From a virus (taxonomy: Duplodnaviria > Heunggongvirae > Uroviricota > Caudoviricetes), in IMG/VR virus record IMGVR_UViG_2671180846_000020: a stretch of DNA of 29,281 nucleotides; one strand, given 5' to 3'. A program made the position numbers and the translations under genes. How positions within the stretch are numbered: the first letter of the stretch is position 1; every line of letters starts with the position of its first letter. Under the pieces are notes generated by a model. The model was not told where the DNA came from. It saw only the letters and a list, made by a program, of their open reading frames with translations, and did not search any database. Shown here in pieces: positions 7,101 to 14,613 of this stretch.

Positions 7101-7157
7101 NNNNNNNNNNNNNNNNNNNNNNNNNNNNNNNNNNNNNNNNNNNNNNNNNNNNNNNNN
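7101..7157. other. run of 57 N (gap or masked sequence)
   Basis: Uninterrupted N characters in the supplied sequence; it interrupts the hok gene. Confidence 0.99.
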
Positions 7158-10366: not shown

Positions 10367-10666
10367 AAAAATTCCTTAATACTGATAACTTGGCGCACTA
10401 TACACACGTTCCTGAAGAAAGCTATAGTTTTTTGATGGGGTTGAAGATGGCTGGATGTCTAAAATAAACATTGCTTCATATGTTCAACTATGCGTTAATG
10501 ATTGCGTCGGTTTGAAGAACAGACGATATACGAAGTAGTTTACTAAAGCAGTTCTCATTTCAGGTGTTATTCACTTATTCCTTCTTTGAGTCTCTCCAAT
10601 TAAGTACGAAGTCGTTTCTGTTATGCAAACCATTTATGCCGAAAGGCTCAAGTTAAGGAATGTAGA

Positions 10667-10882
10667 ATGTCAAATAAAATGACTGGTTTAGTAAAATGGT
10701 TTAACGCTGATAAAGGTTTCGGCTTTATTTCTCCTGTTGATGGTAGTAAAGATGTGTTTGTGCATTTTTCTGCGATTCAGAATGATAATTATCGAACCTT
10801 ATTTGAAGGTCAAAAGGTTACCTTCTCTATAGAGAGAGGTGCTAAAGGTCCTGCAGCAGCAAATGTCATCATTACTGATTAA
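10667..10882 (+). CDS. cspB: cold shock protein CspB-like
   Basis: 71-aa protein [38 protein letters not shown]... with the RNP motifs of CspA-family proteins; long upstream leader. Confidence 0.8.
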
Positions 10883-11163
10883 AATTCATCGCTCGTCTGT
10901 ATACGATAACGAAGAAGGCTGATGCCTGAGTAGAGATACGGACAGAGTAGTGAATATTGGATCTCTTTAATAAAAAGTAAGGAGGTCCAATACATGAAAC
11001 AATGGCTAGCATATTTGGCAAAATCTTAATCAGGAAAAGTATGCTAACCATTGTGGTGAAGTGCAGGTTTGCTGCATGAATAGTTTCACAGCAGAAGCTA
11101 ACTGCTGGCATCGCAAAACAAAGTGCGTAAGTGGATGACTCCCACAAAAAGCACCACAATCTC

Positions 11164-11245: not shown

Positions 11246-11416
11246 TCAGGCTACAGCTTTAAGATTTGTCTGGAATACTTTGTTGCAATGAGGGCAGATC
11301 AAAAGGGCACCTTTTTGTACTCTTGAAAAACTGTGTTCTGACTCTTGGGTGCAGTTTGGGCAGGAACATTTAACGAGATAATTACGGCGTGATTTTGAGT
11401 CTTTACGTTCTGACAT
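11246..11416 (-). CDS. small zinc-ribbon protein, 56 aa (absent from the ORF track)
   Basis: Read directly from the minus strand: MSERKDSKSRRNYLVKCSCPNCTQESEHSFSRVQKGALLICPHCNKVFQTNLKAVA, with two Cys pairs (CSCPNC, CPHC) and an AGGAAAA SD upstream of the ATG. Confidence 0.45.
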   Translation of the reverse strand: MSERKDSKSRRNYLVKCSCPNCTQESEHSFSRVQKGALLICPHCNKVFQTNLKAVA

Positions 11417-13191: not shown

Positions 13192-13553
13192 GGTAATATT
13201 AAATCGGAACATTTACATCGCGGAATGTAAAATTTAAATAAAAAGGACTCTTCCATGAGCCAAAATTCCTGAAATCTTAAGGGTAAGATAAAAGGTCTTA
13301 ATCAGAATGACACGTTTTATTAATAAATAAAGCTATTCTTTCATTGCTGTGTTTTTCTTTACAAAAGTAATCCTTGCTATGGGTGGTTAATCATGCGTTA
13401 ATGGTGTTCTGGTTTGTTACAAATTTATCTGAAGCAGTCATTGTTATAATTTTATTATTTGTACCTCTTGAGATTTCCTTGTTGGTTTTTCTCTCTGATA
13501 TTTTTTTTCGGACCATTCTGCCCAAGGGCTAATTTCTTCAAAAGGTAATAATT

Positions 13554-13766
13554 ATGTCTAACAAAATGACTGGTTTAGTGAAATGGTTTAACCCTGAAAA
13601 AGGTTTTGGTTTCATCACGCCGAAAGATGGCAGCAAAGATGTGTTTGTCCATTTCTCAGCAATTCAGAGCAACGATTTCAAAACATTAACTGAGAATCAG
13701 GAAGTTGAATTTGGTATTGAGAACGGACCTAAAGGTCCTGCCGCTGTTCATGTAGTGGCGCTTTGA
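13554..13766 (+). CDS. cspI: cold shock protein CspI-like
   Basis: 70-aa protein [70 protein letters not shown]; long AT-rich leader upstream. Confidence 0.85.
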
Positions 13767-13967
13767 GGTAGACAATATTACAAACCATATTCACTTTAGA
13801 TGCCCGTGTTGTCATGGTTCCCAGTATAGAACATCATCTTTTGATGTTTCTGACATGAATCCTTTCGGGGCAAAATGTATCTTTTGTAAATCAATGATGA
13901 TTACATTTGATAATATTTCACAATACTTAAATGCCAGCCGTCTGTCGTTGGATTTAAAAAAGTGAAA

Positions 13968-13995
13968 ATGAAGGCTCCTTCGGGAGCTTTTTTGC
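13968..13995 (+). terminator. rho-independent terminator
   Basis: Hairpin GGCTCC-TTCG-GGAGC followed by TTTTTTGC. Confidence 0.6.
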
Positions 13996-14037
13996 TTGGT
14001 ATCTATTCGATGGATACTCACATACTACGGTAACATC

Positions 14038-14268
14038 ATGAAAAAAATCATAGTTTTTTTTAACTCTGAACCAGCAGTGGTAGTGCCAGCGATGACTGGA
14101 GTTAACACCATCATGCGTGAATATCCAAATGGCGAAAAAACACACCTTACTGTAATGGCCGCAGGGTTTCCATCTCTGACCGGAGATCATAAAGTCATTT
14201 ATGTAGCCGCGGATCGACATGTTACTTCAGAAGAAATTCTGGAAGCAGCAATAAGGCTCTTGAGTTGA
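14038..14268 (+). CDS. hypothetical small protein, 76 aa
   Basis: ORF beginning MKKIIVFFNSEPAVVVPAMTG; no recognisable motif. Confidence 0.45.
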   Translation: MKKIIVFFNSEPAVVVPAMTGVNTIMREYPNGEKTHLTVMAAGFPSLTGDHKVIYVAADRHVTSEEILEAAIRLLS

Positions 14269-14436: not shown

Positions 14437-14613
14437 ATGATGAATATTGAAAACTTAAAAACAAAAGCAGAAGCAGATATTTCTGAATATATAACAAAAA
14501 AAATTATTGAACTTAAGAAAAAGACCGGGAAAGAAGTTACCAGTATTCAGTTTACCGCACGGGAAAAAATGACGGGTCTTGAAAGCTATGATGTCAAGAT
14601 TAATTTAATCTGA
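14437..14613 (+). CDS. gnsB: GnsA/GnsB-family small protein (absent from the ORF track)
   Basis: Read directly: MMNIENLKTKAEADISEYITKKIIELKKKTGKEVTSIQFTAREKMTGLESYDVKINLI (58 aa from ATG 14437, 57 aa from ATG 14440), with an AAAAGAGGAA SD. Confidence 0.75.
   Translation: MMNIENLKTKAEADISEYITKKIIELKKKTGKEVTSIQFTAREKMTGLESYDVKINLI

Follow-up and report, generated by a model that had tools for sequence, protein, structure and literature searches.

In Escherichia coli K-12, two cold-shock genes each stand at the head of a paralogous cassette, namely cspG-ymcF-ymcE-gnsA and cspI-ynfQ-ynfR-ynfN-gnsB. The small genes ymcF and ynfQ were reportedly named from cold-shock ribosome profiling by Zhang et al. 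in Mol Cell in 2018. The K-12 gene ynfQ (b4724; 1638256-1638444, minus strand) belongs to the Qin prophage, where its neighbours are rrrQ-rzpQ-cspI-ynfQ-ynfR-ynfN-gnsB, and it starts with an ATT separated from cspI by a 10-nt gap. The start of ymcF (b4723) is likewise an ATT lying 10 nt past the stop codon of cspG, in the context CTC TAA GG, and the stop codon and the Shine-Dalgarno sequence overlap in both genes, as TAAGG in ymcF and as TGAGG in ynfQ. Initiation at AUU is known in E. coli from infC and pcnB, and such starts are disfavoured by IF3; the AUU of infC is a de novo initiation site that serves the autoregulation of IF3. IF3 discriminates against AUU and its level rises in cold shock, while the Csp proteins themselves act as transcription antiterminators.

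Several published data sets bear on the expression of the cspI cassette. Transcriptomic data give ynfQ the label 'Qin prophage, cold shock induced', with an induction close to that of cspI and ynfN (PMC11228462), and ynfQ is co-regulated with cspG, cspH, cspI and ymcF (PMC11728337). A YnfR-SPA fusion was detected and found to be up after cold shock (PMC6001520). The 'ynfQ' of VanOrsdel et al. 2018 (PMC6001520) is a different protein, of 37 aa and encoded near ydfJ/ydfK, and for the locus described here only the ynfR data of that study apply. The preprint by Weaver et al. (10.1101/511675) nowhere mentions cspG, cspI or cold shock.

The DNA analysed in this study, referred to as the window, is a stretch of 29,281 nucleotides from the IMG/VR virus record IMGVR_UViG_2671180846_000020. 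With the exception of one run of N, the window matches, at 100% identity, a Qin-like lambdoid prophage that is carried by E. coli O26:H11 str. 11368. Its genes are arranged as a lysis cassette (essD-ydfR-rrrQ-rzpQ), followed by cspI-ynfQ-ynfR-ynfN-gnsB and then by the terminase and the head/tail genes. The neighbourhood of ynfQ is that of K-12, whereas the setting differs in that the cryptic Qin remnant is here replaced by a lambdoid prophage that looks complete, in a genome of O26:H11 type. The N run occupies positions 7101-7157, where 57 N stand in place of 163 nt from the hokD toxin coding sequence and its 3' region in NC_013361.1; this looks like database masking and not biology.

The initial annotation had drawn attention to a cysteine-rich reading frame downstream of cspI that opens after a TAG and has its only ATG past the first cysteine pair, and both the sequence and the list of open reading frames agree with that description. 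The TAG is found at 13753-13755 and the frame runs open from 13756 to a TGA at 13963-13965. The sole entry of the program-made list in this frame is 13855..13965, an ATG-started ORF of 36 aa, and the frame accordingly has no ATG, GTG or TTG between the upstream TAG and the first CxxC. The frame is almost certainly ynfQ, a known and annotated gene of the Qin-like lambdoid prophage that starts with ATT (13777..13965, plus strand; 62 codons and the TGA) and encodes a YmcF-like cold-shock small protein. It appears to lack a start because ATT is a rare start codon, here placed 10 nt past the stop codon of cspI.

The identification draws on several comparisons. Alignment with the Qin region, which had been proposed as a check, showed that all 189 nt of 13777-13965 are identical to K-12 ynfQ, the ATT start included, and the annotated CDS WP_071524604.1 maps to the same interval of the window. 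A megablast search with positions 13540-14050 (511 nt) returned a match in 2,145 of 5,426 complete E. coli genomes, 100% matches among them, and 1,574 of the matching E. coli records were at least 99% identical. The features annotated under these matches are cspI, ynfQ/ymcF as 'cold shock small protein YmcF', ynfR and ynfN, and the RefSeq name 'cold shock small protein YmcF' is attached to the ynfQ gene in more than 2,100 E. coli genomes. When searched with Pfam PF23641 (YmcF-like), the 62-aa translation scored 111.8 bits (cut-off 27), with residues 1-62 aligned to profile positions 1-62 of 62. The motifs of YmcF-like proteins (CPxC...CxxC, GSQYR and NPxGAKCIFCK) are all present in the protein, and the neighbourhood is equally typical, with the CspA-family gene cspI ending 10 nt upstream and a comparable arrangement in 49 of 82 loci. 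A search of PHROGs found no family for YnfQ, and in NCBIfam the ECs_2282 CxxC family alone came up, below threshold at 17.8 bits (cut-off 37). The gene is the prophage paralogue of the chromosomal ymcF that lies behind cspG.

Comparison across loci shows that translation of ynfQ would begin at the near-cognate ATT at 13777..13779 (plus strand), which is also the start given by RefSeq/PGAP and in the K-12 annotation of b4724. The sequence TGAGG at 13764..13768 (plus strand) joins the stop codon of cspI (TGA, 13764-13766) to an overlapping Shine-Dalgarno sequence for ynfQ (GAGG, 13765-13768), and a spacer of 8 nt leads from GAGG to the ATT. The set of loci used for comparison consisted of 80 loci, one genome per species, together with the window and one further locus (L001), 82 in all. 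At the codon aligned with 13777, ATT is found in 57 loci, ATC in 4 and ATG in 21. Many of the ATT loci have an in-frame stop codon 3-7 codons upstream and no canonical start in between, hence a near-cognate codon is the sole option for a start in those loci. An ATG further upstream, which the initial annotation had suggested looking for in relatives, was found in none of them; some carry an ATG exactly at the position of the ATT instead.

The signals around the start were compared across other species, in 33 unique contexts in which the gene is coupled to csp. T[AG]AGG occupies positions -13 to -9 in all 33, the A at +1 and the T at +2 are invariant, and at +3 there are 28 T, 4 C and 1 G, while the 8-nt spacer before the start varies freely. 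As judged from these alignments, the pattern of conservation is that of a stop/Shine-Dalgarno element, a spacer and a start codon, unlike that of a coding extension. Database entries of 70-71 aa (e.g. MLWRFKVTIITNH...) carry an isoleucine at the position of the true start; in these entries gene callers have extended the frame into the 3' end of csp. Another in-frame ATT, at 13789, was considered as the start and rejected, being 20 nt from the Shine-Dalgarno sequence and replaced by CTC in ymcF.

Homologues of ynfQ are also carried by phages. They were found in records of the lambdoid phages Tritos, PhiR42_1, 2H10, mEp460 and HannyBb and in 388 IMG/VR contigs, and the start codon is ATT in all 80 viral loci examined (L084-L163). 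Of the 9 phage GenBank records with the gene, 6 leave it unannotated, presumably because gene callers disallow ATT starts. Two metagenome-assembled genomes, labelled 'Veillonella parvula' (L003) and 'Mucilaginibacter' (L057), contain an E. coli-type cspI-ynfQ or cspG-ymcF that is identical to Escherichia; these copies are most likely binning contamination and not a genuine presence outside the Enterobacteriaceae.

Three explanations had been put forward for the frame when it was first noticed, i.e. a decaying gene, a gene with a non-canonical start, or coincidence. The second is borne out by the annotation and by the comparison across genera, in the form of the ATT at 13777, while the other two did not survive the same comparison. 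A decaying gene would be what is left of an ORF once initiated at ATG, now without its start and untranslated, and it would accord with the missing canonical start before the first cysteine pair as well as with a prophage region, in which cryptic remnants are common. However, a protein search returned 132 homologues with E values down to 6e-34, nearly all of 62 aa, from Escherichia, Citrobacter, Salmonella, Klebsiella, Raoultella, Kosakonia, Yokenella, Enterobacter and other genera, and the length of 62 codons is kept in nearly all of the 82 loci, which cover more than 15 genera of the Enterobacteriaceae. Between the window and its orthologues, pN is 0.05-0.15 and pS is 0.6-1.0 (saturated), giving a dN/dS of about 0.04-0.05 where this could be estimated, and among 45 core codons the third position varies in 44 and the second in 17. 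These codon comparisons show ynfQ to be, at the level of sequence, under strong purifying selection. Moreover, the ATT is shared with the chromosomal paralogue ymcF and with the functional phages Tritos, 2H10 and mEp460, and the AT at the start is kept without exception next to a variable spacer, which together with the selection on the codons makes decay a very improbable explanation. A chance open frame with fortuitous cysteines is more improbable still and can practically be dismissed. In its favour stand the shortness of the frame and the AT-richness of the region, and with the local base composition an open stretch of 70 codons has a chance of about 0.006 in each frame, but neither the homologues nor the strong Pfam match nor the purifying selection would be expected of such a frame, and the homology and selection read from the alignments are decisive evidence against chance. 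Intact homologues and conserved cysteines, the absence of which had been named as the observation that would speak against a real gene, are thus both found.

Two further readings accept a translated product and place its beginning elsewhere. One holds that the real product is the peptide of 36 aa from the ATG at 13855, the sole canonical ORF in the frame, with the second cysteine pair only. This has very little probability, as M26 is unconserved (R, K, S, Q or N in relatives), the segment HFRCPCCHGSQYRTS, in which the family is most conserved, precedes it, no Shine-Dalgarno sequence is present before 13855, and the Pfam model extends over the whole of residues 1-62. The other would make a CspI-YnfQ fusion by programmed +1 frameshifting at a prfB-like CUU UGA G. 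Such a site exists in the window (CTT TGA G at 13761-13767), ynfQ is in the +1 frame relative to cspI and open from 13756, and the gap of 10 nt in most coupled loci makes this +1 relation a common one. The slippery context is not general, however, since CTT_TGA occurs in only 4 of the 33 unique contexts and is replaced in the others by CTC_TAA (K-12 cspG-ymcF included), GTA_TAA, CGC_TAA and others; in the Kosakonia-type arrangement a gap of 9 nt puts both genes in the same frame, the Shine-Dalgarno-like stimulator found 3 nt upstream at prfB is absent here, and the homologous position in standalone genes is an ATG. We therefore regard frameshifting as very improbable as the main route, though marginally less so than decay or the 36-aa peptide, and initiation of ynfQ at the ATT is retained as the preferred reading.

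The relation of the ATT to the preceding gene was then considered. The gene cspI (13554..13766, plus strand; RefSeq cspI) encodes 70 aa with a Pfam CSD match of 108 bits, and it is covered by a match to the Rfam cspA thermoregulator (RF01766; 13408..13793, plus strand; 112.8 bits, gathering 78; E = 2e-28) that spans its long 5' UTR and its coding sequence and reaches into the start of ynfQ. The layout is that of coupled cistrons, with the 10-nt gap and the TGAGG overlapping the stop codon both present and both conserved. An intact csp ends 9-10 nt upstream in 49 loci, every one of which uses ATT or ATC, and none of the 21 loci with ATG has an intact csp immediately before it. These 21 are of three kinds. 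In Klebsiella, Raoultella and Shimwellia only the last ~8 codons of csp are left; in Leclercia, Silvania and Enterobacter the gene stands alone, with an AGGAG followed by the ATG; and in Citrobacter sedlakii (L008, 1297-1689) a degenerate csp is fused by a frameshift to the ymcF-like frame to give an ORF of 130 aa. The Atlantibacter loci, which lie behind a csp remnant, were scored as ATT at the aligned codon and have an ATG as the next codon. The Pseudescherichia group is a counter-example, as it keeps ATT behind an AAGGA Shine-Dalgarno sequence without a csp upstream. Counted by lineage, ATG is used in 0 of 10 with an intact csp and in 4 of 5 with csp lost (Fisher p = 0.004), a rough figure in which the lineages were grouped by hand and the ATG/ATT contrast rests on about five independent events of csp loss.

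The association of ATT or ATC with an intact csp, and of ATG with a lost or broken one, suggests coupling by termination and reinitiation. It is probable, though far from assured, that ynfQ owes most of its translation to ribosomes which have just finished cspI, either by termination-reinitiation or by a similarly tight coupling. Ribosomes leaving the heavily translated csp cistron would reinitiate at the AUU, at which little de novo initiation would be expected, the codon being weak and discriminated against by IF3 as at infC; the output of YnfQ would then be tied to the translation of cspI and kept sub-stoichiometric. A point against coupling is that the rise of IF3 in cold shock would oppose the use of AUU, unless reinitiation bypasses the discrimination. 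We more tentatively suggest that the AUU or AUC may be a selected coupling device, that loss of csp may force a change to AUG, and that the four-cysteine protein may be a partner of the Csp proteins in cold RNA or ribosome biology. Under such selection YmcF and YnfQ would be made almost solely by ribosomes terminating on csp, their synthesis would be locked to the translation of Csp in the cold, and AUG would have been gained in about 4 of 5 independent lineages that lost csp.

The protein itself contains two cysteine knuckles, C9-P10-C11-C12 (13801..13812, plus strand) and C34-I35-F36-C37 (13876..13887, plus strand). Conservation was assessed in an alignment of close homologues and in one of diverged representatives, and C9, P10, C12, Q16, R18, S20, N28, G31, F36, C37, K38 and M41 are invariant in both; the close alignment also has F7, G14, D23 and P29 invariant. 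A32, C34 and I35 are invariant in the diverged alignment and nearly so in the close one, where two sequences deviate at C34. The arrangement of CPxC, 21 residues and CxxC, as well as the polar motif GSQYRxS..D...NP.GAKCIFCK, is therefore invariant or nearly so. In the diverged alignment C11 and H13 vary while C9, P10, C12, C34 and C37 do not, and with four cysteines kept and these two residues variable, the likely ligand set is the four cysteines.

We favour a small fold in which the four cysteines would bind a metal, probably zinc, in a ribbon or a rubredoxin-like knuckle. An AlphaFold2 model built with the family alignment has a mean pLDDT of 66, with 78-84 in the core, where short beta strands are placed around both knuckles, and a C-terminal helix of low confidence. 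A Foldseek search of the PDB gave no significant match (best E = 1.5), the weak top matches being the zinc-ribbon proteins eL43 and TFIIE-alpha, and a sequence-profile search of the PDB gave sub-threshold local CPxCHGxxY matches only, to the UvrA zinc finger and the Rieske box II. The likeness to a zinc ribbon that had been remarked on at the outset agrees with the invariant CPxC...CxxC pattern, while the fold search gave it no significant match. A 2026 review presents an AlphaFold-3 model of YnfQ that has a rubredoxin-like topology with a metal site (PMC13348028). A Rieske [2Fe-2S] site (box II, CPCHGS) was also considered, on the strength of a local CPCHGSQY match (E = 0.06-0.2) with box I absent, and was rejected because H13 and C11 vary in diverged members.

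A profile search of 1.84 billion representative proteins recovered 42 proteins, nearly all shorter than 100 aa, and among these 42 there was neither a fused domain nor a distant relative suggestive of function. The family is thus a narrow one without fused domains, and association gives no functional lead. A second small protein in the same prophage has a comparable make-up, namely YnfU, a putative zinc-binding protein with CxxC...CxxC (11246-11416, minus strand; NF038384, 79.8 bits), which like YnfQ is encoded beside a csp gene, in this case cspB, whose region contains a second match to the cspA thermoregulator (10506-10898, plus strand; 161.6 bits). Homology between YnfU and YnfQ was looked for with hhalign and was not detectable (probability 1.6%). 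One may speculate that in the cold YnfQ works alongside Csp proteins, with RNA, ribosomes or RNA polymerase as the target.

Immediately behind the stop codon of ynfQ lies a terminator-like GC hairpin followed by a U tract (13970..13997, plus strand; arms GGCUCC/GGAGCU, loop UUCG), in agreement with the terminator that had been placed at the end of the frame. Its inner stem pairs 13970-13978 with 13983-13991, ahead of the U run, and the predicted fold has a minimum free energy of -14.9 kcal/mol (51 nt; z = -2.9 against shuffled sequences). A pattern scan reported the stem on the minus strand only, and a similar hairpin follows the stop codon of ymcF in K-12. The ORF of ynfR (13968..14033, plus strand; RefSeq; 21 aa) spans the hairpin stem (13970-13991), and it is followed by ynfN (14038..14268, plus strand; RefSeq; 76 aa), which matches phrog_3425 over its full length with 180 bits, and by gnsB (14440-14613) in the same cassette. 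Cold induction or co-induction has been reported for YnfR and ynfN, so that at least some read-through of the hairpin must take place. The published expression data would fit a single cspI-ynfQ-ynfR-ynfN transcript, on which the hairpin would be a partial terminator, and the read-through could possibly involve Csp-mediated antitermination. Over the stretch of 861 nt from cspI to ynfN, one mismatch and one indel separate the window from K-12, and ynfN, which has 76 aa in the window, is annotated with 51 aa in K-12; given so small a difference, the K-12 ynfN appears to be truncated at its N-terminus.

What had appeared as an anomaly is resolved as a known gene that is correctly annotated. The case advises that a conserved ORF without an apparent start, lying right behind a highly expressed gene, be checked for initiation at ATT or ATC before it is called a pseudogene. 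In practice ynfQ is still missed, as seen from the unannotated phage copies and from the many database entries with false N-terminal extensions into csp. While the gene was already known, the relation between the start codon and the integrity of csp may be new, and this pattern of start codons and coupling offers a concrete hypothesis for how the expression of YmcF and YnfQ, which are co-expressed with major cold-shock proteins, is set.

Among the known systems other than K-12 YnfQ itself is K-12 YmcF, which shares 41 of 62 residues and the four cysteines with the protein of the window; it differs from YnfQ in its C-terminal 15 residues, which have diverged, and in being encoded on the chromosome. 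With the four-cysteine zinc ribbons and rubredoxin-like knuckles, such as eL43, the TFIIE-alpha ribbon and the UvrA zinc finger, YnfQ has in common two knuckles, separated by 21 residues, and with the UvrA finger a local CPxCHGxxY resemblance as well. With sequence E values of at least 0.018 and structure E values of at least 1.5, this is a resemblance and not membership of a family. At the level of initiation, ynfQ shares with infC and pcnB a near-cognate AUU behind a Shine-Dalgarno sequence, but unlike in infC this AUU is located 10 nt past the stop codon of a cistron translated at a very high level, a position that speaks for reinitiation.
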